Shown piece by piece: positions 17,644-57,538 of a stretch of 64,000 bases of DNA. The notes beneath the pieces are model-generated. The model was given only the letters and a program-made list of their open reading frames with translations, was not told the DNA's origin and did no database searches. The DNA comes from Oligoflexia bacterium (GTDB lineage Bacteria; Bdellovibrionota_G; JANQFH01), in assembly GCA_028277945.1 (NCBI GenBank), contig JANQFH010000008.1, forward strand, positions 195,442-259,441, read 5' to 3'. Each line of letters starts with the position of its first letter. The stretch's first letter is position 1. A program made the position numbers and the translations under genes.

Positions 17644-17648
17644 GCTAT

Positions 17649-18392
17649 TCAGTCTTTTCGCGGTGAAAAAATTACGCCCCCAAGCGTTTCAAAAGGCCTT
17701 CCTATATCTACATCTACCTTCAATACATCGCGGGTCTTGATTCTTGCCCAAAGCGTAGTCGGATCCACACGCCTTTCCTCTTCCATCCAAAACTCGTACT
17801 CGCGAACGAAGAATGCTGGAGAGGTAATATCCGCATCAAAAGCGTTCGGATTAAGATAGTAAATTCTAGGTACCCTATGTTGATGGACCCAATCTATGTC
17901 AGGTTTCTCACTACGAGGCCACTTGTGTGTTTCATAGTTGACCTCATCCACACGTGTTCCGTCGTAGCGGCGACTGTGTTTGAATGTTGCCTTGAGCTTC
18001 CGATTCTCTAGTGCTGATTTTATAATTTTGACTTTCCCAACTCCTGCATAGTGAAAAAATAGAATTACAAGTGCCGTTCGGCCTGAATCGATGTCCTGTA
18101 GAAGTTTCTGAGGAAGAACGGAATCTCTAATTTTATCCGTACCTTCCCTACTTAGGAAGTCAAAAAACCAAATTAGGAAGTCTGATCGAACGAAAAAGAA
18201 AAGTCGATCACCAACGGGATCATGAAATACAAGCGGTTCTTTTATAATCTCCTCCGCCTCGTTCTCGGAAAGCTTCACTCGATGAAAATATTTTGATTCC
18301 TTAATCACTTTGTCCGATGGAAAGTAAGAATCAGCATACAACACTGGCGTCACCACTATAAGAACACTCAAACACAACGTAAAGCGATACAA
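17649..18392 (-). CDS. secreted hypothetical protein
   Basis: 247-aa ORF with signal peptide, 5-bp gap to neighbours in a same-strand gene string. Confidence 0.4.
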   Translation of the reverse strand: MYRFTLCLSVLIVVTPVLYADSYFPSDKVIKESKYFHRVKLSENEAEEIIKEPLVFHDPVGDRLFFFVRSDFLIWFFDFLSREGTDKIRDSVLPQKLLQDIDSGRTALVILFFHYAGVGKVKIIKSALENRKLKATFKHSRRYDGTRVDEVNYETHKWPRSEKPDIDWVHQHRVPRIYYLNPNAFDADITSPAFFVREYEFWMEEERRVDPTTLWARIKTRDVLKVDVDIGRPFETLGGVIFSPRKD

Positions 18393-18395
18393 CTT

Positions 18396-19142
18396 CTACT
18401 CTCCAAAACCCTTCACAAAAAACTTCTCATCGATCAACCGCAGACCCTCATAGACCTCATACTTGATCAAGGCACCCTTGGTATCGCGGTAGAGCCCTTT
18501 GCGCACTTGTCTTGGTTTTTTGTAAAGGCCCTCAACCTTGCTCAAAAAGGCTGCCAGTTCCTCTCTACTAAAAGGGCCATGCCGTTCCCAATCGAGCCAA
18601 TCAGGGCCAATGGAGACCACCACCGATAGCTCACGGCTGCCAGGTTTTACTCCACCAAAGAGCTTCTTTGCCATCCTCTGACTGCCAAGCGTCAGGAGGT
18701 GCCAGTTGCGGCTTTCAAAATGCTCTCGCTTGTTCTGCTGATCCATAAACATAAAATAGACGCCTTCGCTCCAGGAGCTACGATCCAGATTGACGCCTTT
18801 TTTGAAGCGCTCTAAAAATGTTTTTAAATCGGCAGGTTGATCATGCCAATGCCGTATGATCCTTTTGATAAAAGACCAGGTTGAGATGACAGACATGCCC
18901 TCCTCATCTTGCGACTGATCCAGAGAGTCGAGTTTTTCTAATTCATAACCTCTAAACAGTTCCGAACCTGTATCAGGCTCTGTTACCAGCAGCAGAGCAC
19001 CATCTTTAAGTTCCACAGTATCTCCAAACTCTATAGGTCTTTCGATATCCTCAGGAACTCCAGGGATATCAATCACTGTATCTCCCTGCTGTGCAAAGGG
19101 AGAGTCTGGATGGGGGGGTCGTTTTTCTCTCTCACGCATCAC
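18396..19142 (-). CDS. hypothetical protein, possible immunity/partner protein for the upstream RES-domain protein
   Basis: 248-aa ORF whose start overlaps the stop of 19139..20923 by 4 nt; no signal peptide; acidic. Confidence 0.4.
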   Translation of the reverse strand: MMREREKRPPHPDSPFAQQGDTVIDIPGVPEDIERPIEFGDTVELKDGALLLVTEPDTGSELFRGYELEKLDSLDQSQDEEGMSVISTWSFIKRIIRHWHDQPADLKTFLERFKKGVNLDRSSWSEGVYFMFMDQQNKREHFESRNWHLLTLGSQRMAKKLFGGVKPGSRELSVVVSIGPDWLDWERHGPFSREELAAFLSKVEGLYKKPRQVRKGLYRDTKGALIKYEVYEGLRLIDEKFFVKGFGE

Positions 19143-20923
19143 TCTAGGGCCTCAAAAAGAACGACGTTAAAGCCATCTGGATTTCTTGCCGAGGGTACGA
19201 CAATACCACGATAGTGCAGCCGCGCCAATTCTCCTATTATTTGTGTTATTGAGTAATCCTCAGAGATCAAAGCTTCAGGAGCTATATTTAATAGCTCCCT
19301 GACACTTGGTTCATTAAGATCGAGCATGTTGTCGAGTGTGACATAGCGGCTTCTTGTTTCAATCACCCCCTTGACACCATGGGCTCGCATTTCCGCGGCG
19401 ATGGTCTGCCGATCGCCGCTCATGTAAAGCGCGCTTCTTCCCGGCGCTGAATAGCGATGGTTGGCGGCAATATTACCCTGCGGTATTTTCCACGAACCTG
19501 CTCGGTAAACATCACCTCTGTATTTACTTCCCTTGACAACACCTTGAACCAGCTTTTTGGTGGTATCAGGCCCCAAAGCTTGGCTCGCCCTTATCACCGC
19601 AGGCAGATGCTGCTGATCAAAGAGCTTTCTTGCCAAGCCACCACCACCGCGCCCTAGCAAACTGGTGGTCCCTCGGACCATGACCGTGCCTGACAGGACC
19701 ATAGGCACCATCATGGAGACAACTGTCTCTAAAGCCATCTCAAGCGGCAAGCTCGCCTCGACAACTCCAGTTGACGAATCCTCTTGTAGTGCCCACAAAT
19801 GGTAGTCTGCTGCCGCCATTTTGAGTGCTCCTGACAAGAACTCGCCGTCTCGGATATCTTGCACTCCCTCAATCATTAAATAGGCGGCATCTATAAGATG
19901 TGGCAGATCTGGCAGGGTTAAGGCATGATCGAGGGTAATCTCCACATGTTGCCAGATGTGTTGGGAGAGCCTCTCACCTAGATCGCGCTCTAACAGCGCC
20001 AACTCATCGAAGGTCTCAACACGGATGCGCGCCATGGAGCTGTCTGCTTCCAAATGGAGTCGACCTTTGGCCGTTGATTGAGCGCGTTCTGCTCGGTCAA
20101 TGAGTTCGTCTAATGTCTCCTGTATCCAGCGATGTCGTATGAGATCTCGCATGCTGCGAAGCTCGTGAACCCGCCGTGAGAATGCCGCGTAGCCATAGGC
20201 AACCACCTCCTTACTTGAAGCCCGTTCCACAGCCGCCAGGGCAACATCGGTGGAGGTGGCCGTGAGCCCCAGAAATAGTGGCAATCCATGTCTGTTTTCA
20301 GGAAGTGGCAACTGAGCTTGCTGTTGAAGTTGCACAAAAAGAGAGGAGTTGTGGATCATGTCACTAGCGGAACTGTGAGAAGCGAGATCGGAACCACCCC
20401 TTTCGTGGAGGGTGCGAATGTCGAGGCCGCTTGCAGATGATTCATCTCGAAGCTGATCATCTTGAGCTTGCTCTGCAGAGAGGCTTAGATGTTTGTTACT
20501 CTCTGCAACTGCAGTGTTGGCTTGAAGTAGGCTGAGGCCACGTTGCAACCCTGTAAGGTACTGAACTCTACGCCGAGCTTCCACATCACTGTGAGTCGGT
20601 GCTGAGCCTTCTTCATCCTCATCATCAAATCCACCGATCTCTCCTCTCGGGCTATCAAAGAAAGGGTCAAATCCTTCATCTTCTGTTTTGTCTTTGGGTT
20701 TTTGAGAGGAAACGATAACAATAGGCGTGTCAAAAACAATATGGACGTTGCCATCGGAGTCAACGGTCACATTTCCTGGCTCTGTGGTGTAGTCGTGCTC
20801 TCTTTCCTGAGCTGATTCAGTTTGTCCTGCATCATCTTGTGCAACAAGCTCTCTCTGCAACGGCGAAAAAAGACAAATCGTCGCGATCAATAAATAAAGC
20901 AGGCTTTTACATGAAATTTTCAT
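19139..20923 (-). CDS. secreted protein with C-terminal RES-domain (NAD-targeting toxin-like) module
   Basis: 594-aa ORF; signal peptide; C-terminal region with RES-domain signatures YRAGSW ... RYSAPGRSALYMSGDRQTIAAE ... VVPSARNPDGFNVVLFE. Confidence 0.6.
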   Translation of the reverse strand: MKISCKSLLYLLIATICLFSPLQRELVAQDDAGQTESAQEREHDYTTEPGNVTVDSDGNVHIVFDTPIVIVSSQKPKDKTEDEGFDPFFDSPRGEIGGFDDEDEEGSAPTHSDVEARRRVQYLTGLQRGLSLLQANTAVAESNKHLSLSAEQAQDDQLRDESSASGLDIRTLHERGGSDLASHSSASDMIHNSSLFVQLQQQAQLPLPENRHGLPLFLGLTATSTDVALAAVERASSKEVVAYGYAAFSRRVHELRSMRDLIRHRWIQETLDELIDRAERAQSTAKGRLHLEADSSMARIRVETFDELALLERDLGERLSQHIWQHVEITLDHALTLPDLPHLIDAAYLMIEGVQDIRDGEFLSGALKMAAADYHLWALQEDSSTGVVEASLPLEMALETVVSMMVPMVLSGTVMVRGTTSLLGRGGGGLARKLFDQQHLPAVIRASQALGPDTTKKLVQGVVKGSKYRGDVYRAGSWKIPQGNIAANHRYSAPGRSALYMSGDRQTIAAEMRAHGVKGVIETRSRYVTLDNMLDLNEPSVRELLNIAPEALISEDYSITQIIGELARLHYRGIVVPSARNPDGFNVVLFEALE

Positions 20924-22077
20924 TTTGCCAGGCTCAGAATCAACTGTAATAGAAATGTGCCGTCCCCCTCCAAGGCTTTGGCGATCTCCAACAAGAGTTC
21001 AAGCTCTTTTGCCTTTTCAGTATCTCCTTGCGCCTTCAAAGCGCTGATTCTTTTCTCAGCCTCTGCAACTGGATTGAATCCCTTGACAATACCGGCAATT
21101 CTCTCGATATCCTCTTGACTATGAGCAACAAGTACTTCCAGGTCTCCTTTCAGCTCAGCATCGCTCAACTGTGGTAACACCTCCTCCCGGATCATGTGCG
21201 TTGCTGTAGACCACGTGAAAATGGCTTCTAATGCGGCAAAGAAATCTCGATTGACCAAAACCTCTTTTTGAACCTCAAGCTTCAACGAGGAGAAGAGATC
21301 GGAAATGTCGAAAAGAAAATCAATCCGTTGAAAATCAGCAAAGTATTGTTCCTTGAGCTCCTTATAAATCGCCGCTGACAGTTCAGCGGGTGCAGCGGCA
21401 AGATAGGAGGCAAGCTGATTGTCACTGCGATCGAGTTTTCGCAGCAGAACATCAACCGCCTGTACGAGCCTATCCCCAGTCTCCAAAGCTTCTTTAAAAC
21501 CAATAATGACCTTGCGGTCCTCTTCTCGAATCCGCCGTTCCACTTCCCGAAATCCTTCTAAGTAGAGAGGATCTAATCGGTTACCAGGCGGAGGTATCCG
21601 TTCATCGATGTCTTCTCGGGTTAGCTCTGGAATAACCGCTGATAGACCGGAAGTCGCCGACAGGGCGACCTGTCGAGAGCCTGCAAGCAGGTTTCTCGCT
21701 GCATCAATGTGCGAGCGGACTTGAAAGGCGAGCGACACAGCCTGACGTATCTCTTCTCTAGAGGATGCTGTTTTAACGGCGTTGACTTTGGCAAAGGGAG
21801 CCTCCAACCCTTCTTTGGTACGGCGAAATTCGTTAAGGGCAGCCGTTAGTCGACGCGTTGACCTCGAGGCCCTTGCATAAAGACCCCGATAGTGCTTATG
21901 CGCTGCGGTGCGTCCCTCACTCTTAACGGTAGCGCTCCTGGTCTGCTCGTATTTAAGCTGGAGACGCCGCAGCTCACCTTCCAGTTCCTCTACCGACTGC
22001 GCAAAGGCAGGTGAAAGAACAAAAAGCGAGATCAGCAACGATTTTAAGACCGACATGGGTAAGTATTTAAAGCACAT
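20920..22077 (-). CDS. secreted coiled-coil hypothetical protein
   Basis: 385-aa ORF with signal peptide (LISLFVLSPAFAQS); overlaps the downstream gene start by 4 nt; similar N-terminal organisation to 54768..55964. Confidence 0.4.
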   Translation of the reverse strand: MCFKYLPMSVLKSLLISLFVLSPAFAQSVEELEGELRRLQLKYEQTRSATVKSEGRTAAHKHYRGLYARASRSTRRLTAALNEFRRTKEGLEAPFAKVNAVKTASSREEIRQAVSLAFQVRSHIDAARNLLAGSRQVALSATSGLSAVIPELTREDIDERIPPPGNRLDPLYLEGFREVERRIREEDRKVIIGFKEALETGDRLVQAVDVLLRKLDRSDNQLASYLAAAPAELSAAIYKELKEQYFADFQRIDFLFDISDLFSSLKLEVQKEVLVNRDFFAALEAIFTWSTATHMIREEVLPQLSDAELKGDLEVLVAHSQEDIERIAGIVKGFNPVAEAEKRISALKAQGDTEKAKELELLLEIAKALEGDGTFLLQLILSLAK

Positions 22078-27817: not shown

Positions 27818-27922
27818 CTACGACCCGGTAGGTATGCTAGCTAACTTAGCACCTAGCACACGGTGTGATTGAAAAGAGAAATTGAAGGAAACTGTCTTTT
27901 TACTTTCGTTGCTTTTTGCCAT
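27818..27922 (-). CDS. candidate precursor peptide (34 aa): MAKSNESKKTVSFNFSFQSHRVLGAKLASIPTGS
   Basis: Below the ORF-track size cutoff; ATG preceded by AGGAG at 7-nt spacing; stop lies 38 bp upstream of the HExxH gene start. Confidence 0.35.
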   Translation of the reverse strand: MAKSNESKKTVSFNFSFQSHRVLGAKLASIPTGS

Positions 27923-35657: not shown

Positions 35658-37493
35658 CTAGGCACTATATCTCGCCAGTGATGATTGATTGTTCAATTCG
35701 GGCATTACTAGTAGCGGCACAGTATTCGCCAGCATTTTAGGTAGTAATTTCACTTTCCACTTAGTACATAATTCTTGAATTTCCATTTCTTCAAAGCGAG
35801 AAGTTACAAGTATTGATTGTTGCTCCAGCCTGTATTCCTTGATCAAATCCAATCCGGTTTTTTTACTTCCTAGCAATTCATAGTCAAAAAGATAAATTGA
35901 TGGTCCCTGTTCTTTATGTTGTGCTAGATAGCTTGATGCATCGGTATAATTAGACAAATCAACTTGATTAATGGAATGTAGATATTTCAGCGGGCCAAGC
36001 CGGTTTGTCCACACGTGGTGGATAAATATATCGTCGTCAAGTACTACAAAGTCACTATTTGGCTTTATATGAATTTTTGGAACATACCAATTTGGTGGAG
36101 GAGCCTTGGGAACTATCATCTTCACATTCGTTCCCATGTTTTGCCGTGAGTCTATTGTTAGTTCTCCATGCCAACGTCCTAAGGAGCTCTTCGCATAGTA
36201 TAAGCCTAGTCCTAATCCATGTTTCTTGTTAGCAGTCACACCTCTCTCTGTCGCTTTTTTAAGCAGTTCCTCTGACATGCCGCATCCATTATCCGAGACT
36301 TCAATACAAAAATTGTCTCCGGAACAATTGCATAGTCGTATACTAACTTCACCATTATTTGGAATAGCTTCCACGGCGTTATTAATAAGGTTCGAGAGAA
36401 TTCTTTTGAACTCGACAATCTCGACCTTCGCAAAGATACTATAGGCTTCTTCCGTAAAAACTGTATTAATCTTTATATCCTTACGTCCTGAAAACTGAAT
36501 CCTCTTTTCGGACACAAGAGTTTCTATAAGCACGGCGATCTGCTGAGTACTTACACGTTCGAAGTGAGTGTTGTCTAAATGGCGGGCATCCTGATCTGAG
36601 TAATAGGTATTGTCATTCCAAAGTAGCTGACGATGCTTTTCTACTAAGCTATTAGCAATATCCTGAATACGTGTGGCCGCTTGTCGCAAAAGAACACGTT
36701 GTTCTTCAGGGATATCACTAGAAGACTTGCCCAACATCTGCAAAGCAGTCAACGGTGATCTGATATCATGGGCCACTCTTGAGGCAATCTCGCCCATTGC
36801 GGCCTTCTTTGTTGCTCGTACTAGAACAGCTTGGGCTGTTTCTAATTCTTTTACCAATTTTCGAGTATTTTTGTATAATTCATTAATCTCCTTTATGTTT
36901 GAAAATCGTACTTCTTGAGAATTCTCAAATAGAGACCTTAGTCCATGTTGCGAAAGTCGTCTAGATAGATGCACTATCGGCCAAGTAATTTTTTTTCCTA
37001 TAACCCCTCCTATCCAGACGAATATAATAAATAGGGAAACAAGGGCTATTACGAGCACTACTAACGCTCGATAAACAGATCGTGATAATAGTTGTTGTGA
37101 AAAAACAATCTGGATCGTTGCTGCCATTTCTTTGCTAGTTTGATCAAAGTAGACATGAGAGGTAATAACTTCAGTTGAGGAGATTCCCTCACGTTTGGTG
37201 GTACTGCAGATTGAAAAATTTTGACTGTCAACAACACTTATACCCAAAATTGACCGGTCACGTAAAAGTATTTTACATTTTCTGTAGACTTCCGCATGGG
37301 CTCCTATAAGAAGACTGTGGCTTATGTCCTCGGTAAAGATGTTTACGATAGATTGGAACTTTGCTTGAAGCTCCTCCTCTGCACTCTTCTTTATCAAGTA
37401 GAGTGCCAATGCCCCACTAAGTACGACAGTTGCCGCCGTTATGACGGCTGAGGGAACGAACATAGCCCTGCCTAATGTCCACCTAAATCTCAT
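35658..37493 (-). CDS. hybrid sensor histidine kinase with C-terminal receiver domain
   Basis: Paralog of the other two kinases; H-box VAHDIRSPLTAL, N-box NLINNAVEA, G-box DNGCGM, REC-like VVLDDD ... LFDYEL; start taken at ATG 37493 (track TTG start at 37532 is the alternative). Confidence 0.85.
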   Translation of the reverse strand: MRFRWTLGRAMFVPSAVITAATVVLSGALALYLIKKSAEEELQAKFQSIVNIFTEDISHSLLIGAHAEVYRKCKILLRDRSILGISVVDSQNFSICSTTKREGISSTEVITSHVYFDQTSKEMAATIQIVFSQQLLSRSVYRALVVLVIALVSLFIIFVWIGGVIGKKITWPIVHLSRRLSQHGLRSLFENSQEVRFSNIKEINELYKNTRKLVKELETAQAVLVRATKKAAMGEIASRVAHDIRSPLTALQMLGKSSSDIPEEQRVLLRQAATRIQDIANSLVEKHRQLLWNDNTYYSDQDARHLDNTHFERVSTQQIAVLIETLVSEKRIQFSGRKDIKINTVFTEEAYSIFAKVEIVEFKRILSNLINNAVEAIPNNGEVSIRLCNCSGDNFCIEVSDNGCGMSEELLKKATERGVTANKKHGLGLGLYYAKSSLGRWHGELTIDSRQNMGTNVKMIVPKAPPPNWYVPKIHIKPNSDFVVLDDDIFIHHVWTNRLGPLKYLHSINQVDLSNYTDASSYLAQHKEQGPSIYLFDYELLGSKKTGLDLIKEYRLEQQSILVTSRFEEMEIQELCTKWKVKLLPKMLANTVPLLVMPELNNQSSLARYSA

Positions 37494-39021
37494 TGTCTTT
37501 AGCCCACTGTAGTCGGTAGAGAGGAAAGTCAAATTGGTAGCGTTTTTCCGGGACTTTAATATGTTTGTGGTAAATTACCGGAGTATAAAGATGAAATAAT
37601 GGAACGATAAATGACTTTTCCTCAAACTCAATCATTAGATCAGTGTATTTTTCTAATCTCCGTATACGGTCAGATATGAAACTGATTTCATCAGCACCCT
37701 TTAAAAGCTTCGTTGTGGGGAAATTGCCAAATTGGATTGGATTTTTGGCTCGAAACAAGTCTAGGAAGCCATCTGGGTCTGGTATGACTCCAAAATAACC
37801 TACCATAATCAAATCGTAATCTTTGCTTTTTAGAAGAGGTATAACCTCTTCAATATTTTTGAACTCTATAATCGGGATCATACCTACGTTGGTCAACACT
37901 TCACTGATAGCCTTACCTACAGGTATGTTTAAATATTCTTTCCTCAAAACTATTCTAAGCTTTTTATGTTTTACTTTATTTTTCCAGAGCTTTTTGAAAC
38001 TGATCGGACTCATACGGCGAAAGTCACGTTCGTAGTATCTTCTTAGAAGAACGCCATGTGGTAAAAAATGCTTCTGATGGTCTATAAAGAAACCGGGTTT
38101 CTCTATCTGGGAAACTCGAGTTTTTATTAGCGCCGCAATATCTCTTCTAAAACTTTCATTACTTAGTGCTGGATTGTCAGTGTTTGTATATAGATGTAGG
38201 ATGCCCAGTCCTCCTAGACGGAGTAACTGATAATTATTTGGTAGTGTTCCCGGTTGTAATCCTGGATCAGCAAAGCCTAATGCGAAGTCAATCGAGTCAT
38301 TCCGTAATTGTGATAGTAGTTGATTTGCGCTTTCTACCCGTCGAAACGAAAGCCTGGATATATGGCTATCATTGGGAACGAACGGAACCATCTGCAGACG
38401 ATTTGGCAGTTGTACTGAGTCCAGAGAAAAAGAGCCAGACCCCACTACCTGAGAAGAACTACCAGAGGACTTTTTAGTTACACCGTAACCAGGTACTGCT
38501 AACAATTCTAACAGATACGGATACGGACGCTTGAGGCTTAGAATAATCGTGTGCTGATTCGGAGTGATAATTCCCGATGGTATTTGTCCATCTTTCAGGT
38601 TTTCGGCACCTACCACGATACGACCTAGATAGCTGGATATTTGCGTCATACTACCTTGCCATAAATGGCGTGACAGACTAAAGGCGATATCTTTACTCGT
38701 AATGAGCGCACCATCATGGAACCGAGCATGACGATCCAGATGAAAGCTATAACGTCTTCCATCTGAAGATATCTTCCAGCGCCTTGCAAGATCAGCTGTA
38801 ATACGATTTTCTTTGTCTAACTTTACTAGAGTGCGTAAGTATGGTCTAAGAAGGTCAGAATGTACGTAATGCCACGCATCTATTGGATCCAGAGAGCTGG
38901 GCAAAATAGGCAACGCTATCTCAAAGCTGTTGGTTGTCTTACGGTACTTCTGTTTAGATGATGCTGCATAAGTATGAAAGACAAATGAAAATAAAAGAAA
39001 GTGCAACAGGCACGCCTTCAT
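37483..39021 (-). CDS. family-5 extracellular solute-binding protein, orphan
   Basis: SBP5 paralog; start taken at ATG 39021 (MKACLLHFLLFSFVFHTYAASS signal peptide; GTG at 39042 is the alternative); stop overlaps the kinase start. Confidence 0.8.
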   Translation of the reverse strand: MKACLLHFLLFSFVFHTYAASSKQKYRKTTNSFEIALPILPSSLDPIDAWHYVHSDLLRPYLRTLVKLDKENRITADLARRWKISSDGRRYSFHLDRHARFHDGALITSKDIAFSLSRHLWQGSMTQISSYLGRIVVGAENLKDGQIPSGIITPNQHTIILSLKRPYPYLLELLAVPGYGVTKKSSGSSSQVVGSGSFSLDSVQLPNRLQMVPFVPNDSHISRLSFRRVESANQLLSQLRNDSIDFALGFADPGLQPGTLPNNYQLLRLGGLGILHLYTNTDNPALSNESFRRDIAALIKTRVSQIEKPGFFIDHQKHFLPHGVLLRRYYERDFRRMSPISFKKLWKNKVKHKKLRIVLRKEYLNIPVGKAISEVLTNVGMIPIIEFKNIEEVIPLLKSKDYDLIMVGYFGVIPDPDGFLDLFRAKNPIQFGNFPTTKLLKGADEISFISDRIRRLEKYTDLMIEFEEKSFIVPLFHLYTPVIYHKHIKVPEKRYQFDFPLYRLQWAKDNEI

Positions 39022-39038
39022 CAAAATGTGAATGAGTT

Positions 39039-40130
39039 TCACTGCGTACTCCGGTCACAGTAGATCTCAATATCATTCTGTTTTATCAGTATATGTTTTT
39101 GTGTATACGTTACTTCTACGCCTTTATGGTGTGCTTTGTAATCATATCTATAATGACCATCGAAATATCGGCATATTTGTAACGGCCCTGATTTTTTTAG
39201 TAGGTCTGTCACCCCCAATTGTAGAGGATTTTTATTTCCCGAACGTGATGACGAGGCCATCTCCTGAAACGGATGCAATTTTGAATCAATTCGCTTAGGT
39301 ACATTAGGATGAGCGTAATAAAATATTTCTCTGTCACCGCACTTCCTAAAGTAATAGGGAATGTCACCTCGTTCTAATTGTTCTAGCTCACTAGGTAGAA
39401 ATTCGTTCCCGTTTAAATTATTCGCCTTCTTTGTCAAGAAGGAATGATAATCTCTTGTAGACCGAGGAATGACCCGAATCGGATTTTGCATGAATCCATC
39501 AATGGAAGCAAAAAGATTCGCTGTGAGTTCTGTTACTGATGAGAGAAAGTTCAATGCGTCAAAAAAACCAAAGCAAATTGCAGCAACGCCACTGTGGGAT
39601 CTATCCAACTCTCGAAAGTTATTTAATAGGTGGGAGAGTCCTGAATCTTCAAATGTCAATGCAGGGGAAGGTATGAGTGCTGTTTCAGAGAGAAGTGTGT
39701 GATCTTCAAAGATACATTCTATATCGATAGGGCTGAATATGATACTGCCAGCAGAAGTCTTGCCAAGCAATACATTGGCACGGTGCAGATCTCCAATTCC
39801 GAACCAAGTAATAAGTGCGATGGTACGGCCAATATCTTCTAATACTTCTAAATCTAGATCTTTGGAAATGAGAGGTTTAAGTAGGAGTTCCTCTACTCTG
39901 CCAAAACATTTTTCACCAGGAGATGACATTTCGACATATAGTTTTGGTAAAGATCTTCCTGGGTATACAAATCCCCTTTTCTTAGCTTCAGATTCTAATA
40001 AAGATGTTAAGGGACTTAATCGAGATAAGAAGAGGTATTCCCAAAATACAGTTCTAGGCTTGCAAATCCTTTGGGTACCATCACGACAAACTCGCTGTCC
40101 AAAATTGTGAGGGTCGCCTAACGGTTGCAT
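39039..40130 (-). CDS. hypothetical protein, possible kinase-like phosphotransferase fold
   Basis: 363-aa ORF with GGGAGG before the ATG; segment GIGDLHRANVLL resembles catalytic loops of aminoglycoside/protein-kinase-like phosphotransferases; occupies the modifying-enzyme slot of the cassette. Confidence 0.35.
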   Translation of the reverse strand: MQPLGDPHNFGQRVCRDGTQRICKPRTVFWEYLFLSRLSPLTSLLESEAKKRGFVYPGRSLPKLYVEMSSPGEKCFGRVEELLLKPLISKDLDLEVLEDIGRTIALITWFGIGDLHRANVLLGKTSAGSIIFSPIDIECIFEDHTLLSETALIPSPALTFEDSGLSHLLNNFRELDRSHSGVAAICFGFFDALNFLSSVTELTANLFASIDGFMQNPIRVIPRSTRDYHSFLTKKANNLNGNEFLPSELEQLERGDIPYYFRKCGDREIFYYAHPNVPKRIDSKLHPFQEMASSSRSGNKNPLQLGVTDLLKKSGPLQICRYFDGHYRYDYKAHHKGVEVTYTQKHILIKQNDIEIYCDRSTQ

Positions 40131-40144
40131 ATGCCTCCCATCAG

Positions 40145-40258
40145 TCTATGCGGGTAGAGAAAGGGGAGGCTTACCTAGATCCCTACAGTCACGCCACGTA
40201 TTACGACAATCTTCTCCAATTTATCTAAATCTATGTATTCTCGTCTTCTTTTTTTCAT
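40145..40258 (-). CDS. candidate precursor peptide (37 aa): MKKRRREYIDLDKLEKIVVNTWRDCRDLGKPPLSLPA
   Basis: Below the ORF-track cutoff; ATG preceded by AGGAG at 6-nt spacing; stop lies 14 bp upstream of the 39039..40130 gene. Confidence 0.35.
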
Positions 40259-40895
40259 GATTTACTCCTATTTAGGTTATATCCACCAATTTTTCAAGCT
40301 CTTATTTGATATCCTTAAAGCTTAGGATGCACCCTATCCTAATTTATTTCTGCAAGGAACGTGCTAACAAAAAAGTTAATGATTTTAAAAGATTGGGTTC
40401 TTCAGGAAAGAGTATTGTTGGTTTTTGCAACAATCTAGTGCATAAAACGACAAATTGTATCTCTTACGACCAAGGTTAATAAAAGTTAATAGTGATTGAA
40501 GGGGAGGATTAGTTGTGGAGTGTTAACCCTTGGATGATATTAGACGAATTTTGAAAATCGGTCTTAATCTATTGATAAAAAAGAAACTTTTTGGGAAATT
40601 GGGGTTGATTGCCGACTGACCCAACAAAATACTACAGAAGTCTTAATGTGACAGACGTAACACATGATTCATTTCAGATGCTTATGTTGTAGTGCAGAGT
40701 GTATAGAATTTTCTCAACAAGAAGGCATATATCCTGGGAAAGGCTGCTGGTTATGGGATGTGGCCTTGCCTACTGGTATGGCGACTTACAACACTTACTC
40801 TTTTGTTAATTTCCGTAGGACTAAGAGTGGTTGCGAGGCTGGTGTACAGCATTCTCCCTATTTCAGTGGAGGGCTTGTTTTCAGAGTTTAAACAC

Positions 40896-41000
40896 CTAGT
40901 TCGCTATGAGGCTTTCCATAAACTGGTAGCCTTCGGCAATTGCAGCATCGGTAATTTGGTCCTTCAAACTGTCAACACTTCTCCGTCCCCAAGCACATGA
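40896..41000 (-). pseudogene. 3'-terminal remnant of a paralog of the lipase-like gene 44960..46414
   Basis: Minus-strand translation ...SVDSLKDQITDAAIAEGYQFMESLIAN-stop matches the C-terminus ...GLKDQITDAAITEGRQFMESLIVN-stop of 44960..46414, with a nucleotide match of about 70 bp; no upstream body. Confidence 0.5.
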
Positions 41001-41116
41001 AGTGTGTTGAACTTGAAATAGGTCTGCTACCTAAGCGAATGCTTTCCTACATTCCTATTGAAGTAGTTGGGCATAAATTACGTTAGTGGTTTTAACAAAT
41101 ACTAGTTAAGGTCTTG

Positions 41117-42331
41117 ATGTTTAGATTCTATTTCAACTCTTTTCGAGGTTTACCCAGGGCGGGAGTGTTGCTTTCATTGGCTGCATTGATAAACCGTCTT
41201 GGAAGTGTGGTGTTGTTTTTCTTTGCGATCTATTTAACGAAAAATAATTGGAGCGTATTTGATATTGGGAAGGTTCTATCAGCCTATAGTTTTGGCTATG
41301 CAGGTGGGGCTTATCTTGGTGGTCGTCTTAGTGATCGTTATGATAGCCGTTTTATACTTATAATTACACTAATGGGTTCTGGCTTATGTTTCTTCGGACT
41401 TTCTATAGCGGATTCTTTTACACCTGTTATTCTTTTACTTTCTATGGCTGGCATTTTGGAAGGTGCCTTTAAACCAGCATACAATGTTACAATGACCCGA
41501 TGTTGTACCCAGGACGAGTGGTCACGTGCTTATGCACTGTATATGACCACGACTTATTTAGGAGGAGCTATAGCTTCAATGGCAGGTGGATTTTTGTCCA
41601 AATGGAACTTTAGCTACATTTTTTATTTTGATGGTGTAACGTGTATCATTGCAGCGGTTTTTGTGTGTATTGTTTTCGATCGGCTAACCCGTTCAGTGGA
41701 AGCAGAGAAAGAGCAAATCACCGATGAGTTCAGTCTATCTAAAAATACACCTCCATCTTCTCTAGTTATTTGGATAATTTTTGTATCCATGTTTTTTGTC
41801 TATCTTGTTGATCAACAGGAGTCTGGAAGCTATATGATTCATATTACAAAACAGTATGGTATTGATACTCACCAGGTAGGTATGTTGATTGCTTTTGGCT
41901 GTGTACTTATGGCACTGACCACTGTACCTTTGACTCAGTTTTTCAAACGCATTCCGGATTTTATCGCGATGACTTTAGGATCTTTGATTCTTTGCCTGTC
42001 CTTTGGTCTTTTGAATCAGGGTGATAGTTTTGCCTTTCTTTTCTTGTTGATGGCTATGTGGTCCTTGGGCAGCATCATATCATTTCCGACCGTAGTGAGC
42101 CTCATTGGTAAGTACTCAACAAAGGAAAGGGTTGGACATAACATGGGAATTTACCATTTCATCTCTGGCTTAAGCAGAATCGTCGCGCCCTCTCTTGGTA
42201 CCTATGTCTATCAAAACTTGGGTCCGAATATCTTGTGGAGTGCTTGCACTGCTATTGGTGTTTTCAGTGGTGTATCCTTCCTTCTCATTTATCGTTTTAG
42301 TTTAAGGTCAATTCACTCCAGAGAAGCATGA
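41117..42331 (+). CDS. MFS-type transporter
   Basis: About 404-aa polytopic membrane protein, motif-A-like loop GGRLSDRYDSR; ATG at 41117 (track start is TTG at 41114). Confidence 0.7.
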   Translation: MFRFYFNSFRGLPRAGVLLSLAALINRLGSVVLFFFAIYLTKNNWSVFDIGKVLSAYSFGYAGGAYLGGRLSDRYDSRFILIITLMGSGLCFFGLSIADSFTPVILLLSMAGILEGAFKPAYNVTMTRCCTQDEWSRAYALYMTTTYLGGAIASMAGGFLSKWNFSYIFYFDGVTCIIAAVFVCIVFDRLTRSVEAEKEQITDEFSLSKNTPPSSLVIWIIFVSMFFVYLVDQQESGSYMIHITKQYGIDTHQVGMLIAFGCVLMALTTVPLTQFFKRIPDFIAMTLGSLILCLSFGLLNQGDSFAFLFLLMAMWSLGSIISFPTVVSLIGKYSTKERVGHNMGIYHFISGLSRIVAPSLGTYVYQNLGPNILWSACTAIGVFSGVSFLLIYRFSLRSIHSREA

Positions 42332-52292: not shown

Positions 52293-52658
52293 TTACTTAC
52301 CCCATCTTTTTTTAAAACCTTTTTCTAGGTTTATGATCTCGAATACATCGCACTCCACTGTAGCGCATAGCAGACTGTTTTCATATTCCCATAGATTGAC
52401 GTAGTAGACCTCCGGTCTATATCTAGATGCCTTTGTTAGTGCCCATAATTCATTGCCATGGAGATCAAAAGCACGGATATTCTGTGGGTCTTTGGATCTA
52501 AAAAGTACAATAATGATGTTATCGATCAGATATCCTACTGTAATCTTCCCATATGTTTTAGGAAGGAGTATGGATTTGTGATTGTCTACTTTTATTTCTA
52601 TTCTATTGTCTCTTTCTAGAAGTTTTTGTAATTTCACCATATTATTGGTTCGCTCCAT
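52293..52658 (-). CDS. immunity-like small protein (downstream of large secreted toxin-like gene)
   Basis: 121-aa ORF overlapping the 3' end of 52634..54766; no signal peptide. Confidence 0.4.
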   Translation of the reverse strand: MERTNNMVKLQKLLERDNRIEIKVDNHKSILLPKTYGKITVGYLIDNIIIVLFRSKDPQNIRAFDLHGNELWALTKASRYRPEVYYVNLWEYENSLLCATVECDVFEIINLEKGFKKRWGK

Positions 52659-54766
52659 GCTTCAACCGATGATTCTAGAGGTTCATCAATCAATTCCCAT
52701 TGAATGCCTCCACCCGGAGTACCGAATTCATCAACTTTGTCGACGATTCCCTTTCTTAGAACAGTACTCGTAGGGACACGAACTTCGACCATGAAGGTCA
52801 TACTATTATTTGGAGGAAGAGAATATAAATCCCTTACAACACTTTTACTCAGAGTTCGAGGATCAACTTCCATTAACCATGGCCCCATTTTGTCAGAATT
52901 ATCTCCAAACACTCGATAGAAGATTTTTGTTTCTTTTAGTTCTATTGTTTCAACAATCTGATTTGGGGCATAGGGCCTGATACCTTTGGCATATTTCCAA
53001 TAGCTGTCAACCGCACCGGCGGTCTGTTTGCCAGGAAGAGCAGCTTTTGCCAGTTTGGTCCAGGTCGAGGCTTGTGTGAGCTCTTCTGGGGTTATCTGGT
53101 CCTTTTGTACGGCGCGGAAGCCGCGAAGGGAGAGGAGGACAGGACGTTTTTTGACGAAGGCTTCTACGGTCTCTGGGCCCAGCTCTGCGACCACCGTGGC
53201 GAATCCGGCGCTGGCCTGCTTTTCTCCGGAAATGGCCATCTTTAGGGCGATGGCTTGGGTATAGGGGCCGAGACGGGGCAGGGTATCGACAAGAACGCCA
53301 GACTGTAATGCCTTTGCCATCCTGGCGTGGTGGATTTTGGCGAGGGGGATGCCAACTTTACTCAAGACAACGCGTAATGATTGGACGCCGATGGCTCTGG
53401 CAAGACCGCCGATGGTATTAACGCCGAGGCTGCCGAGTGCCAGGACCGTTTCCCCAGCTATCCCTGGGGCAGTGATGGCGTCACGATCCACAAAGCCATC
53501 GGTGAGATACTTGGCGATGGCTGCTGCGGTTGCTGCTCGCAGGTAGTCGCCTTGGGAGAGGGCCTCTTGGCTACTGCGGATCTGCTCCTGCAGTAGGGCA
53601 GGTGAGTACGGTTGGTTGTAAGGGGTGATCTTACCGGCAACCACCTGCTGGTTGTAAAGGGCAGCACGGATCAGGGTGTTGAACACGGCACTTTCGGCTG
53701 CTGCATCGATCTCCGCCAGTCCTTCGTGCAGAGTGCGTTCAAAATCGTAACTGCGGAGAATTCCCGCCAGTCCTGAACGGAGTGTGGCGAGTTTCGTGCG
53801 CATGCTTTCAAAAAGCTCACGGGTTGCCAGCATCGAGGCATGCAAGTTGGGATCTTCAATCAGATCGGCAACAGCCTCGATGGTAAGCAGATGCAGATCA
53901 ACAGCTTCGGTGAGCTCTAAGACAAGATACTCGTCGTTGACACGAATGGCCTCCTCGACTTTGGCTCCTAGAGGCGCGTACGCAGCTGCCAGGGACTGTT
54001 TGAGTGGGTCTCTGAGAAGAGAGAGAGGATTTTGAAAGACATCATGGAAGATCTGTTCAGGGTTCCAGAGATTTTCTAGATCCACCTCCTGCATGGCTTC
54101 TTCAATGAGCTCTCTGTGGGTGGCACGGGCCATGTTTGCTACTGCCTTGTCCCCCTCTAAGGTATCGAGGCCGACGACAATGGTGTTTTCACTCAAGTGG
54201 CTCCATTTGAGATTTGCCTGTTGATGAAAGCGCTGGTAAAGCGCTTGCATCCGGGGGATTAAGGATTGTTGTTCGTAACCTTTCCACTGTTGGTGTTTGA
54301 TGCGGATCACTTCTGAATTGGGACGAACAGTGTGCAATGGCTCAGGTCTTTTAGGTGGCTCTCTAGGATCGACCTCACCAGGATGAGGTCTGTCCCAGTG
54401 AAAGGGATCGAAGTCATTAAAATGATCATGACCGTTGCTGTTGGGAAGGTCGTCTTCAGCATACTGTTCATCGACCGGATGAGGTCGTTCTGTCGGGTTT
54501 TTTGGGGATTCGTTCTTTACGGGAAATTCAACATCACGCTCCATCGTGACGGTGATTTTTCCTGTTTTAGGATCTATATAAACTCCAGGATAACCTCCAG
54601 GCATGATGTCTTTAGGCGCGTGGTTATTTCCTGGTTTTTCGACCTCGCTCCCATTGCCATCACCGCCGCCTGTTTCCTGAGCGCTAGCTGATAAATCAAC
54701 AGCTGATGTGGCCATGATATAGAGAGTCAACAAGAAGGTGATAAATCTCTTCAGAGAGTCCTTCAT
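52634..54766 (-). CDS. large secreted polymorphic-toxin-like protein
   Basis: 710-aa ORF; signal peptide, Gly/Pro-rich region, long helical region; C-terminal about 100 residues contain an R ... TST ... QWE arrangement (FYRVFG, PTSTVL, IQWELID) compatible with, but not proving, an ADP-ribosyltransferase-like domain. Confidence 0.45.
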   Translation of the reverse strand: MKDSLKRFITFLLTLYIMATSAVDLSASAQETGGGDGNGSEVEKPGNNHAPKDIMPGGYPGVYIDPKTGKITVTMERDVEFPVKNESPKNPTERPHPVDEQYAEDDLPNSNGHDHFNDFDPFHWDRPHPGEVDPREPPKRPEPLHTVRPNSEVIRIKHQQWKGYEQQSLIPRMQALYQRFHQQANLKWSHLSENTIVVGLDTLEGDKAVANMARATHRELIEEAMQEVDLENLWNPEQIFHDVFQNPLSLLRDPLKQSLAAAYAPLGAKVEEAIRVNDEYLVLELTEAVDLHLLTIEAVADLIEDPNLHASMLATRELFESMRTKLATLRSGLAGILRSYDFERTLHEGLAEIDAAAESAVFNTLIRAALYNQQVVAGKITPYNQPYSPALLQEQIRSSQEALSQGDYLRAATAAAIAKYLTDGFVDRDAITAPGIAGETVLALGSLGVNTIGGLARAIGVQSLRVVLSKVGIPLAKIHHARMAKALQSGVLVDTLPRLGPYTQAIALKMAISGEKQASAGFATVVAELGPETVEAFVKKRPVLLSLRGFRAVQKDQITPEELTQASTWTKLAKAALPGKQTAGAVDSYWKYAKGIRPYAPNQIVETIELKETKIFYRVFGDNSDKMGPWLMEVDPRTLSKSVVRDLYSLPPNNSMTFMVEVRVPTSTVLRKGIVDKVDEFGTPGGGIQWELIDEPLESSVEAWSEPIIW

Positions 54767-54767
54767 G

Positions 54768-55964
54768 TTAATCTTCTTCTAGTTTGTTGAGAGCTAGTTC
54801 CGCGAACGCGGCATATGTGCCATGGCTGTCTTCGTTAGCGATTTCTGCGTAGAGTAGAAGTGCCTTTGCCTGTTCAAGCTCTGCTGGCAGGACTCTGCCG
54901 CTCTTTTCTAGCTTGCGGATACGCTTTTGGATCCAATAGGAAGGTGGATTCTTTGTGACCAGGCGTCGGTATTTTTTGACCTTTGCTGTCCATTCAACGG
55001 CCAGCTCTTTTGCCTTTTTCGCCTCTTTTTCGCGCAAATCAAGCGACAGTAGGGCATTAAGGAGGATGAGAGAACCTGTTTGCAGGACTTCTAACCTTCG
55101 TAGGGCCTCAAAGTAACGGTAGTGCAGGAGTAAAGCATCTTGAAACTGTTGCTCCAGCTCCACCAATACATTCTCGGCATCGTAGTAGGCGTCAAGACTG
55201 ACTTCTGCATGAGCCAGCCTCTCCTGAAAATCCTTGTACATACCATGGGCTAAAACTTCGGAGGTGTGGTCGAGGTATTTCTCCAAAGTTTCGCCATACT
55301 GCTCGAAAATGCGCCCATAAGCTTGCTCGACTTGTGGCAATGGTTGCCTGAGCTTTTCGCAGTAATCCACCAGAGGGGAGAAACCATGTGATTTGAGCCA
55401 AGAGATTGCACCTGCAAGGGATGGCTTGTAGCCGTATTGCAGATCTTGTGAATATTCGGGAGGAATGGCATCTACAAGTCGGTCGGCGTTGGTTTCGAGG
55501 ACGATGCGACACTGTGCTTCCATGGACGATAACGACCTACGGTATCGTTCCAAGGCCGTGGTGGCTTTATGTTCTTCCTCGGCAAACCCAAAAGCCGCCG
55601 TATGGAGCTTTTGTGTCCACTGCTTTGCCTCTTCAGCCCCTAGACTCTCAACCTCCGGAGGTTGTATTACTTGGACATTCTCAGCAGCTACAGCAATGGT
55701 CCTGAATGCAGACTTCATCACCTCACGATGTTTGACCCCTTGTAGATATGCCCCATTCAAGAAATCGTAGGCTTGCAGGCGGGCCTTTTCATGGACTATC
55801 TTGCGTTTTAGCTCATCTTTTTGCGTCTCAATTTCTCTCCTCTCACGTGCCATTTCTTCGACAGATTGTGCCTGACTAAGAGAAGGAAGTGAGACAAACA
55901 ACAAAAGTAAAAGAGGAAGATTGAACAGGTTTGTCATAACAACGTTACTTTTAATCGCCCTCAA
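54768..55964 (-). CDS. secreted coiled-coil hypothetical protein
   Basis: 398-aa ORF with signal peptide (LFVSLPSLSQAQS); 1-bp gap to the downstream toxin-like gene. Confidence 0.4.
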   Translation of the reverse strand: MRAIKSNVVMTNLFNLPLLLLLFVSLPSLSQAQSVEEMARERREIETQKDELKRKIVHEKARLQAYDFLNGAYLQGVKHREVMKSAFRTIAVAAENVQVIQPPEVESLGAEEAKQWTQKLHTAAFGFAEEEHKATTALERYRRSLSSMEAQCRIVLETNADRLVDAIPPEYSQDLQYGYKPSLAGAISWLKSHGFSPLVDYCEKLRQPLPQVEQAYGRIFEQYGETLEKYLDHTSEVLAHGMYKDFQERLAHAEVSLDAYYDAENVLVELEQQFQDALLLHYRYFEALRRLEVLQTGSLILLNALLSLDLREKEAKKAKELAVEWTAKVKKYRRLVTKNPPSYWIQKRIRKLEKSGRVLPAELEQAKALLLYAEIANEDSHGTYAAFAELALNKLEED

Positions 55965-55969
55965 TAGTG

Positions 55970-57538
55970 CTAATAGCGGCGTCCTACTTGGTCTCCATAT
56001 CTATCTAGTATAGGAGTTTGCGTCCTGTACTTTTTATCGCCTTCGATAGCCCCAATAGCGGCGTCCTCCTTGGCCTCCATACACTTTGTATAGAGCAGAT
56101 CGCGTCCTGTATCTTTTAAGGCGCGAATAAACTTTTGCAGGTGTTTGGTTTCATCTTGCACTTCAAAACTCTTGGAAATCAGCATGGCATGCAGCTCTGT
56201 TAAGCGAGTGAATGCTCTGCCTATCTCGTCTTCCGGGCCGACTGTATCTGTAGGTTCCTGCATAAGGCTGTAAACGGCGATCAGGCGCTCATAGTCGCTT
56301 AGCGACAATTCTTCGTCTTCATAGAGCTCTTCTACTGTCTTCCGAAACGCTTTCGGGCGCTTCTCGATCTTAGCTAGCGTCCATTCCTGCAGATTCCCTA
56401 CTTTTTTGAGTAACAACAGCCCTTCGAGTGTTGCGGCTGTAAGTTCTAACTCTTGGAAGGTATCGTCGTACTCCTCATCGTTTATAGCGCGGAGACGATC
56501 GATGATTCTTTTTAGCGAGGATTCGGATTTCTTGAAATAGGCTTTGAATATCCTGCGTGCCTCAAAATTGACCATTAACGCTCTTTCAAGATCTTCTTTG
56601 TCTGATTTAATTAGCGTTTCGAGCCAACTCAGGCGATTTTCTGCATCACCAAGGTTTGTGCAAGCTTCGAGCACAGAGTCTTCATAAACAAGGAGATCGT
56701 AACCAACGAGGTTAAGGGAGTAACTACGAAGCATCCCAACAGGCATTTTTATCTTTATTGTTGTGTTTCCCAGCAGGTCTAACTGCTGTCTCATGCTGGA
56801 CCTTGCTGTGTAGGTCCATCGCTGTGGTCCTCTTTCTTGACACCAAAATCCGTCTTTAGGATTATGATGGTGTGCGTGACGCCCATTTAAATTGCAGTAA
56901 CACCAGCCACTGTCACCCGTGTAGGTGGGTTTTCCATAGCGCCAATGATCCTCGGGAAAGACGATTTCAACACGGTGCATACGGTATAGAGAGTTTAACT
57001 TGCTTAAAGGGGTGTCACCGAGAAATGCATTGGTCGTCTGTTCGGTGCGAAATTTATTCCAGTCTATGACTGCGAGTGGAAGAGGAAAGTTTTCAATATC
57101 ATACCTCTTATAAGATGCTGGAGGATCTAACGCAGACGAGAAAGGTCGATAGCTGACGGTTGTTTGGGGAAATGGATATTTGTATTTAAACAGTGTTTCG
57201 TCATTTTGTTTATAATAGAGCTTAAAATAGACGTTGCTTCCTAAGAGCTGCTGCTCCAGCTCTCTATGTACTTCGGAATCATCAATTCCTTCGCCTTTCG
57301 CACCCATCTTGCCAAATAGCCGAACTTTGTAGGTGGCGGGATAGAGATATGATTCTCTTTCGTCAATATCCTCAAAATCTGAAAGGAATAATCCCAAGGA
57401 AGGAAGGCCTTGCTTCATCGCATAGCTGTTAACGTAGTAAATTTCACTCTTAGCCCAGGAGATTGGTGGAAAAATAATTAGGACCATGGTTAGAAGCAGA
57501 AAATATAGCCAGGGGATATGTGTTACTCGGTTTGACAT
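55970..57538 (-). CDS. membrane-anchored hypothetical protein
   Basis: 522-aa ORF; N-terminal TM/signal segment; His-rich patch HAHHHNPKDGFWC; first gene of a same-strand string ending at 51914. Confidence 0.4.
   Translation of the reverse strand: MSNRVTHIPWLYFLLLTMVLIIFPPISWAKSEIYYVNSYAMKQGLPSLGLFLSDFEDIDERESYLYPATYKVRLFGKMGAKGEGIDDSEVHRELEQQLLGSNVYFKLYYKQNDETLFKYKYPFPQTTVSYRPFSSALDPPASYKRYDIENFPLPLAVIDWNKFRTEQTTNAFLGDTPLSKLNSLYRMHRVEIVFPEDHWRYGKPTYTGDSGWCYCNLNGRHAHHHNPKDGFWCQERGPQRWTYTARSSMRQQLDLLGNTTIKIKMPVGMLRSYSLNLVGYDLLVYEDSVLEACTNLGDAENRLSWLETLIKSDKEDLERALMVNFEARRIFKAYFKKSESSLKRIIDRLRAINDEEYDDTFQELELTAATLEGLLLLKKVGNLQEWTLAKIEKRPKAFRKTVEELYEDEELSLSDYERLIAVYSLMQEPTDTVGPEDEIGRAFTRLTELHAMLISKSFEVQDETKHLQKFIRALKDTGRDLLYTKCMEAKEDAAIGAIEGDKKYRTQTPILDRYGDQVGRRY

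Follow-up and report, generated by a model that had tools for sequence, protein, structure and literature searches.

Peptide autoinducers are, to our knowledge, the rule in Gram-positive bacteria and almost absent from what is known of Gram-negative ones. In Gram-positive species, family-5 binding proteins such as OppA, for the Phr peptides, and PrgZ, for cCF10, take short signals that are cut from the C-termini of small secreted precursors. In the nisin (NisRK) and subtilin (SpaRK) systems, a peptide that is ribosomally synthesized and then modified post-translationally (RiPP), the product of a gene cluster, is detected by a two-component kinase whose gene lies in that cluster too. LuxP-LuxQ, which serves autoinducer-2 (AI-2), pairs a solute-binding protein (SBP) with an adjoining membrane histidine kinase, without an ABC permease. 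Among the modifying enzymes, the dehydrazole LanMbC CcaM has a DUF4135-type domain that works outside classical lanthionine formation (PMC10676384). The present work concerns a small open reading frame (ORF) on the minus strand of a 64,000-nucleotide stretch from an Oligoflexia bacterium (contig JANQFH010000008.1), referred to as the window. The ORF has 27 codons and stands first in a gene string, cassette D, that continues with a 363-aa LanM-type enzyme (mini-LanM), a family-5 SBP (SBP5) and a sensor histidine kinase. We consider it moderately probable that the ORF encodes the precursor of a RiPP-like signalling module, in which the mini-LanM would modify a threonine, the peptide would be exported, and the SBP5 and kinase would sense it.

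The small ORF and its signals are laid out on the DNA as follows.

40175–40258, minus strand: precursor-peptide ORF, 27 codons and a TAG stop, MKKRRREYIDLDKLEKIVVIRGVTVGI, identified by direct translation and by a leave-one-out peptide hidden Markov model (HMM).
40265–40270, minus strand: Shine-Dalgarno sequence TAGGAG, with a 6-nt spacer to the small-ORF ATG; AGGAG-type sites also stand before the precursors of loci L007, L088, L128, L006, L002 and L166.
40214–40234, minus strand: leader recognition-type motif I9-D-L-D-K-L-E15, found as (I)D[LM]xx[LI]E in 17 distinct loci directly 5′ of the mini-LanM gene.
40187–40189, minus strand: codon of Thr24, where modification is predicted, 9 residues past Glu15.

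Direct translation opens the ORF at the ATG of 40258–40256 and closes it at the TAG of 40177–40175; the genes that follow in the same direction encode proteins of 363 aa, 519 aa (SBP_bac_5) and 624 aa (histidine kinase). A preliminary description of this DNA had already recognized the ATG at 40258, the AGGAG ribosome-binding site (TAGGAG at 40270–40265) and the place of the ORF at the head of the cassette D string, and the sequence bears out all three. The product of 37 codons that it gave does not stand. Its first 19 residues are correct, while the last 18 are out of frame: the last A of codon 19 was used a second time, and GTA-AAT-ACG was read for GTA-ATA-CGT. Because the frame-slipped tail replaced the C-terminal core, the end at 40145 and the 14-bp gap to the 363-aa gene were wrong along with the length; the in-frame end is at 40175, and 44 nt separate the stop from the 363-aa gene, whose ATG lies at 40130 and has a GGGAGG site to itself. 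The true peptide ends in ..EYIDLDKLEKIVVIRGVTVGI followed by the stop, with RGVTVGI as the C-terminal core that carries the invariant Thr. The 37-aa frame itself was considered and ruled out, as it needs a −1 slip at GTA-ATA, where there is no homopolymer or slippery site and both available assemblies agree. It would also put the Thr at +6, and it scores 15.2 bits against the family profile described below, on the leader motif alone, versus 20.7 bits for the 27-aa product, whose alignment runs through Thr24. The second assembly is a Logan contig (public read set SRR20820740) that was assembled independently, is identical and has the same bases gtcgtaatacgtggc, and the two may stem from the same reads. 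An independent gene caller left the small ORF uncalled on this contig. No NCBIfam model matches the peptide, and Rfam finds no RNA family anywhere in the window.

The strongest evidence for the small ORF comes from other genomes. Homologues of the 363-aa protein, at 30–39% identity, led to 80 loci from species-representative genomes, 80 from metagenomes and 8 more by exact look-up of six proteins. These loci divide cleanly into a low-GC group, which has both the peptide and the sensor genes, and a high-GC group of Myxococcota, which has neither. The former is made up of Bdellovibrionales, Bacteriovoracaceae, Pseudobdellovibrionaceae, Oligoflexia, the isolate Fluviispira multicolorata and unbinned metagenome contigs. 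In 16 low-GC loci other than the window, the ORF directly 5′ of the enzyme gene ends in the same manner, with (I)DLxxLE, 7–8 residues, a Thr, 1–7 further residues and the stop; it overlaps the enzyme gene by 3 nt at one extreme and stands 120 nt away from it at the other. The Thr stands 8 or 9 residues past the last acidic residue of the motif (+8/+9) in 17/17 precursors, that of the window included. None of the 17 has a Cys after the motif, and the 27-aa peptide of the window has none anywhere. The preliminary description had made its proposal depend on the frame being kept in relatives; this holds for the corrected frame, which recurs at the same position in the 16 distant loci. Examples of their precursors are as follows, each ending at its stop codon.

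L031: C-terminus ..TFIDLDALEKEMSHSGVTVSSG; as an example of the pattern, ..IDLDALEKEMSHSGVTVSSG
L004: C-terminus ..QVIDLKTLEYEARGPATGITSG; as an example of the pattern, ..IDLKTLEYEARGPATGITSG
L011: C-terminus ..ETIDLKKLELESKGPATITSG
L006: C-terminus ..EVIDLDSIEATTVISSSTVGTF
L045: C-terminus ..EFIDLKSLEKHLSHAERTLTSTKVE
L056: C-terminus ..QSIDMDSLESEMKTVHTTDF
L064: five copies of MDLDKLEC, then MDLDKLEIKSFKFFGTVL
L002: C-terminus ..VTDPAKLEKVLSRPNQTMTSVVE
L073: C-terminus ..INDKKELEKILARPSKTITSL
L149: C-terminus ..IKNKKKFEDILSKPGQTVTSL
L007: MNVTIVEIEEVEKEEVVGVDTI
L088: MNYEIINIDVIEAEANVSGTSIN
L128: MVIDLDKIESESAPVLATRTAPEN
L166: MESNNIEFVDMDLVEAQAVVPSNTSV, 26 aa, GGAGGA site, HMM E 4.9e-4, beside the closest enzyme homologue (38% identity)
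L167: 120 aa with a signal peptide, ending in ..NDETVLDDAIAMTDNTMTSI
L168: VDIKHIDLQSIEQTNVLVSGTWG, GTG start

Nearly all predicted precursor starts are preceded by AGGAG-type sites. Short precursors of 22–31 aa like that of the window are found in L007, L088, L128, L166, L168 and probably L006. For a quantitative measure, the leave-one-out HMM was built from 13 foreign peptides, with the window peptide excluded, and run on a six-frame translation of the window, split at the stops into 2,973 segments of 12 residues or more. A single match came out, at 40261–40178 on the minus strand (E 2.3e-5, 21.7 bits); the next best segment had an E of 2.4. Over 1.12 Mb of fetched loci (29,391 segments), the matches were confined to these upstream ORFs. 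Loci L166, L167 and L168 were retrieved after the profile had been built, and all three fit the pattern, with the Thr at +9. Locus L130, a 1.5-kb contig, has no recognizable precursor in the 395 nt available. A regular-expression and six-frame HMM search of the roughly 140 high-GC Myxococcota loci found no motif peptide upstream of the enzyme, and SBP5 and kinase genes are likewise absent there; in every low-GC locus with a long enough contig the peptide is present, and SBP5 and/or kinase genes follow the enzyme gene. On this comparative evidence the small ORF is more than a chance frame, and the core idea of the preliminary description, that a real small gene, missed by annotation, stands first before an enzyme, an SBP5 and a sensor kinase, is supported by the conservation of the corrected frame. 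The peptide also has the parts by which a RiPP precursor is defined: it is a small ORF adjoining a modifying enzyme, with what appear to be a recognition region and a core that bears the target residue.

Two features of the leader motif are worth pointing out. Around the small ORF, a 24-nt direct repeat (71% identity) lies at 40209–40232 and 40279–40302. The copy just 5′ of the ribosome-binding site, read on the minus strand, gives ELEKLVDIT and a stop, a degenerate second version of the leader motif DLDKLEKIV without a start codon, which may be left over from a duplication of the motif or may match by chance. In the isolate Fluviispira multicolorata 33A1-SZDP (L064, 4773–4991), six leader motifs stand in tandem (MDLDKLEC five times, then MDLDKLEI) ahead of a single core, KSFKFFGTVL, and an MFS gene lies directly 5′ of the precursor on the same strand.

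The next gene of the cassette encodes the enzyme.

39039–40130, minus strand: mini-LanM, a LanM-type kinase/dehydratase core of 363 aa that lacks the cyclase domain and the N-terminal cap.

Its match to Pfam DUF4135 (PF13575) lies above the gathering threshold (39.7 bits against a cut-off of 29) and covers only model positions 274–375 of 378, the C-terminal quarter. An AlphaFold2 model of the protein, made with 23 homologues, has a mean predicted local distance difference test score (pLDDT) of 88.8 and a predicted template modelling score (pTM) of 0.91, and a Foldseek search against the Protein Data Bank (PDB) returned only CylM (5dzt, E 1.5e-6) and LicM2 (6st5, E 2.8e-6), with a probability of 1.0. 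The profile of the family aligns with LicM2 residues 198–324 and 488–567. The residues of the active site map onto CylM as listed here, and all of them are invariant or near-invariant within the mini-LanM family.

GD6-x-H8, CylM D252/H254: P-loop
K24, CylM K274: catalytic Lys
D114-L-H116-x-x-N119, CylM D347/H349/N352: catalytic loop
D136, CylM D364: metal ligand
R219 ... T225, CylM R506 ... T512: phosphate elimination

Mutagenesis of CylM has assigned the LanM chemistry to these residues and found R506 and T512 to be needed for phosphate elimination (PMC4550811). Around that last pair, the segment PIR219VIPRST225RDY aligns residue by residue with ..IVR506NVIRPT512QRY of CylM and VRHVFRPTHVY of LicM2. 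The 363-aa protein has, in short, a LanM kinase-fold dehydratase domain with the residues of both phosphorylation and elimination. Its chain begins at the P-loop (about residue 250 in CylM and 200 in LicM2) and ends after a beta-rich C-terminal region, so that the capping helices, a portion of the N-lobe and the entire cyclase domain are missing. No Pfam or NCBIfam match to a LanC-like zinc cyclase domain was found in it; TIGR03897 reaches 27 bits against a cut-off of 304. Judging from an exhaustive profile search, which returned 387 cluster representatives at E ≤ 1e-30 with the best 150 all between 257 and 407 aa, the mini-LanMs are a discrete protein family and not gene fragments.

The Myxococcota branch of this family comprises about 140 of the homologues (L009–L085 and L090–L165), mostly from Polyangiaceae. 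They are slightly longer, at about 400 aa, and their neighbourhoods are variable. In several of these loci an RsmE-like gene lies upstream, and the neighbouring ORFs that are conserved among them have no Pfam match.

Downstream of the enzyme lie the two genes of the sensor.

37483–39042, minus strand: family-5 solute-binding protein of the peptide-binding type, 519 aa, with a signal peptide (Pfam SBP_bac_5, E 3e-31); its start overlaps the enzyme stop by 4 nt.
35658–37532, minus strand: membrane sensor histidine kinase, 624 aa, HisKA and HATPase domains, from Pfam and hydropathy; alternative start at 37463.

The gene call on the Logan contig gives the kinase 601 aa. Two hydrophobic, membrane-spanning segments (about residues 23–48 and 147–183) enclose a periplasmic loop of about 100 residues. 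The preliminary description had spoken of a hybrid kinase. The histidine kinase is there; the word hybrid is unproven, since in the C-terminal 145 aa receiver-like motifs (DD...D...T/S...K) can be made out by eye and the Pfam Response_reg match is weak (13.7 bits, E 0.073, cut-off 30.2). The cassette has no ABC permease or ATPase gene. A secreted SBP adjoining a membrane histidine kinase without cognate ABC genes, the genes overlapping or abutting, is the layout of an SBP-dependent two-component sensor, and the same order of SBP5 and kinase is seen in the related loci. By analogy with such sensors, the SBP5 would most likely sense the peptide and act on the kinase.

How the peptide might reach a periplasmic binding protein is suggested by a comparison of the precursors with their neighbours. 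Six relatives (L002, L004, L031, L056/L084, L149 and L167) have precursors of 100–126 aa with typical Sec signal peptides, and no transporter gene lies beside the cassette in these loci. An MFS-like neighbour is present in 6/8 of the loci whose precursor has no signal peptide, the window included, versus 0/6 of the Sec-signal loci. The MFS proteins belong to two families. One is shared by L064, L007, L166 and L168 (27–32% mutual identity); the other holds the MFS of the window, which is 23% identical (E 3e-18) to the divergent MFS beside the L086 precursor. A seventh signal-less locus, L128, has an unrelated protein with nine transmembrane segments instead. This complementary pattern of signal peptides and transporters suggests that the destination of the peptide is outside the cytoplasm, and the peptide is probably processed or secreted, as the preliminary description had supposed.

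41114–42331, plus strand: MFS transporter, divergent from cassette D (Pfam MFS_1, E 1e-56).

The window MFS is thus a candidate exporter for the precursor, which has no signal peptide of its own, with its assignment to cassette D being tentative. The divergent operon to which it belongs starts close by on the plus strand: a 75-aa Cys-rich ORF (MIHFRCLCCSAEC...) at 40664–40891, called by the Logan gene caller, is followed by the MFS gene (41114), a 267-aa gene (42328) and an SBP5 gene (43334). The 75-aa ORF may be another precursor. Neither its product nor the 267-aa protein has homologues in the fetched related loci.

Taken together, these findings can be arranged into a working mechanism. The mini-LanM would dock on the peptide motif I9-DLDKLE-15 and phosphorylate Thr24 at its fixed distance of +9 from the motif. 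The phosphorylated residue would most likely be converted to dehydrobutyrine, because the enzyme keeps the phosphate-elimination residues of LanM. A retained phospho-Thr is the alternative; in salivaricin 10, phospho-Thr can persist in the mature product (PMC10235938). With no Cys in the peptide and no cyclase in the enzyme, no lanthionine ring would form. The modified peptide would then be exported to the periplasm, here probably by the neighbouring MFS and in the signal-peptide relatives by Sec, and trimmed, and a short C-terminal fragment would be bound by the orphan SBP5. The loaded SBP5 would switch the adjacent membrane kinase in the manner of LuxP-LuxQ or CBP-ChiS.

Several points weigh against this proposal. 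A linear product of 7–12 residues, one of them modified, would be an uncommon kind of ligand. Most members of the mini-LanM family, those of Myxococcota, have no such peptide, and the enzyme therefore has no strict need of one. The conservation of the precursor rests on distant loci, at 30–39% enzyme identity, and not on close relatives. The cassette contains no leader protease and no response regulator or Hpt gene, and the receiver domain of the kinase is doubtful. The window MFS stands at the head of a divergent operon that includes another SBP5, and it may be part of that operon instead, which is why its assignment is tentative. Finally, a scan of 39900–41200 found no sigma-70-type promoter or terminator near the small ORF.

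The mini-LanM product could, alternatively, be a secreted effector, antimicrobial or related to predation, with the SBP5 and kinase serving autoinduction or immunity sensing in the way NisK/NisR do for nisin. The enzyme–precursor architecture and the conserved catalytic residues suit this account as well as they suit signalling, the relatives are predatory Bdellovibrionota, and the window is rich in peptide-modifying enzymes. The core, however, is very short, at most 12 residues past the motif, and holds only one invariant Thr, with neither Cys nor rings; the cassette has no immunity ABC transporter or dedicated protease; and the peptide and enzyme are strictly linked to the sensor pair, with no other conserved cassette genes. 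We consider an effector unlikely on these grounds.

The peptide could also stay with the cell that makes it. Modified or not, it would act in the periplasm or cytoplasm of the producer as a co-ligand, chaperone or inhibitor of the SBP5 and kinase and report a cytoplasmic state such as the ATP level, with no role between cells. Several relatives do route their precursors by Sec straight into the periplasm, beside the SBP5, the enzyme is ATP-dependent by homology, and the cassette has no component for export across the outer membrane. On the other hand, porins let small peptides through freely, which in effect makes a peptide in the periplasm an extracellular one, and the presence of several orthogonal paralogous cassettes in one genome fits distinct signals better than a single metabolic read-out. 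Such a cell-autonomous modulator seems improbable to us.

A third account takes the peptide to be functionless and the ORF to be purely regulatory: its translation would open a hairpin that hides the ribosome-binding site of the 363-aa gene.

40133–40170, minus strand: hairpin of GCCUCCC, 4 nt past the small-ORF stop, with GGGAGGC, the Shine-Dalgarno sequence of the 363-aa gene, from the minimum-free-energy fold.

Lying just 3′ of the ORF stop and covering the downstream Shine-Dalgarno sequence, this hairpin could give translational coupling, but its stability does not exceed that of shuffled sequence (z −0.04), and it is absent from the other loci, where the gaps run from overlap to 120 nt. 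As a conserved regulator it was accordingly rejected. Conservation is seen in the protein sequence, where the Thr keeps its position among loci that share no nucleotide similarity, and some relatives have precursors of 110–126 aa with signal peptides; a purely regulatory ORF is therefore very improbable. That the ORF is a random 27-codon frame beside a fortuitous AGGAG is hardly credible, for although sixteen ORFs of at least 20 aa lie within 600 nt around it and the gene finder did not call it, the unique profile match (E 2.3e-5 among 2,973 segments) and the position, motif and Thr spacing common to 16 distant loci refute it.

If the ORF does encode the precursor of a signalling module, the question arises whether cassette D is one of several. 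Cassettes A and B of the window have SBP5–kinase pairs that are paralogous to those of cassette D (26–37% identity); the cassette D kinase is 34% identical to that of B (E 1e-106) and 36% to that of A. The cassette A enzyme is YcaO/SagD-like, and the cassette B enzyme resembles an alpha-ketoglutarate (aKG)-HExxH peptide beta-hydroxylase (TIGR04267). As far as their genes tell, the three cassettes fit a set of parallel peptide channels. From here it is a possible, though tentative, step to suppose that Bdellovibrio-like Gram-negative bacteria use modified ribosomal peptides as autoinducers, with several orthogonal SBP5–kinase channels per genome, built on mini-LanM, YcaO-like and aKG-HExxH hydroxylase-like enzymes. 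If true, this would be a peptide quorum-sensing architecture new for Gram-negatives, and a conserved operon of precursor, enzyme, binding protein and kinase would offer a testable case in predatory bacteria, whose cell–cell signalling is poorly understood. It would also provide a natural example of a LanM dehydratase reduced to a minimum, guided by a leader and acting at a single site. At 363 aa, the enzyme has about half the size of a LanM dehydratase domain, has lost none of the catalytic residues and seems to act on one Thr at a set distance from a motif of 6–7 residues, which makes it attractive as a minimal system for studies of leader-guided dehydration and for peptide engineering. Gene callers pass over such precursors of 22–31 codons, and annotations therefore do not show the module.

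The other cassettes and strings of the window deserve a brief account of their own. Cassette A (3907–8248, minus strand) has the order SBP5, a 312-aa YcaO/SagD-like protein and kinase, and the short ORFs upstream of its SBP5 gene are unconvincing. In cassette B, a 34-codon ORF (MAKSNESKKTVSFNFSFQSHRVLGAKLASIPTGS; 27818–27922, minus strand) with a CAGGAG site lies upstream of the 277-aa protein that matches TIGR04267, followed by MFS, SBP5 and kinase genes; no homologues of this enzyme could be retrieved. At 12609–15888, a gene for an HExxH-like protein of 330 aa, 28% identical to the cassette B enzyme, overlaps one for a YcaO protein of 341 aa; a convergent MFS gene adjoins the pair, and there is no SBP5 or kinase gene next to it. 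Two further regions on the minus strand, 52634–57538 and 16150–22077, contain two paralogous strings of genes for secreted proteins that no Pfam model matches (the product of 522 aa resembling that of 497 aa, and that of 398 aa the one of 385 aa), the second of which includes a RES-domain protein of 594 aa. Outside the window, locus L168 has a gene for a 402-aa protein between the mini-LanM and SBP5 genes (3580–4788). The protein has a faint YgjP-like/MATCAP metallopeptidase similarity and is a candidate leader protease. Further upstream in L168 are a radical-SAM gene and two ORFs of about 43 aa.

The closest described relatives of the enzyme and its peptide are the class II lanthipeptide systems, in which CylM, LicM2 or LctM act on a LanA precursor. 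The P-loop D/H, the catalytic K, the DxHxxN loop, the metal-binding D and the R..T elimination pair are common to both, as is a small precursor gene immediately upstream whose product has an N-terminal recognition part and a C-terminal core with Ser/Thr. The differences are as clear. The enzyme has 363 aa here, versus about 900–1000 aa; a LanC-like cyclase is missing, and so are Cys residues in the core and thioether rings; one invariant Thr at a fixed distance takes the place of many sites; and the partner genes are those of an SBP5 and a kinase. The cassette has no LanT/C39 peptidase-ABC exporter, and no GG/GA site before the Thr is conserved across the precursors. A reading of LDKLEKIVVIRG as a double-glycine leader was rejected for the same want of conservation in the precursor family. 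With no cyclase, no Cys and no LanT, this is by its gene content not a lanthipeptide system, yet LanM dehydration chemistry appears to be used.

On the sensor side, CBP-ChiS of Vibrio cholerae (PMC12704726) is alike in that an SBP gene adjoins that of a membrane kinase with a small periplasmic part and no ABC permease. Unlike in CBP-ChiS or LuxPQ, the proposed ligand here is a modified ribosomal peptide from the same operon and not a sugar oligomer or AI-2, and the contact between SBP and kinase is a presumed one. NisRK and SpaRK differ in sensing their products directly without an SBP; the products are ring-containing antibiotics, the hosts are Gram-positive, and a gene for a response regulator accompanies that of the kinase. 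OppA and PrgZ belong to the same solute-binding protein family as the SBP5, but they feed an ABC importer and a cytoplasmic RRNPP receptor with unmodified peptides. CcaM, in turn, has about 1,000 aa and a class III cyclase domain, is leader-independent and works only on azole-containing cores. The survey of DUF4135 proteins published with CcaM (PMC10676384) excluded those of less than 500 aa and therefore did not cover the family of about 350 aa described here; in the literature searched, an incomplete sample, there was no prior description of that family or of the four-gene module. The module, apparently undescribed in Bdellovibrio-like bacteria, looks like a RiPP precursor and LanM-type enzyme joined to an SBP-dependent two-component sensor.

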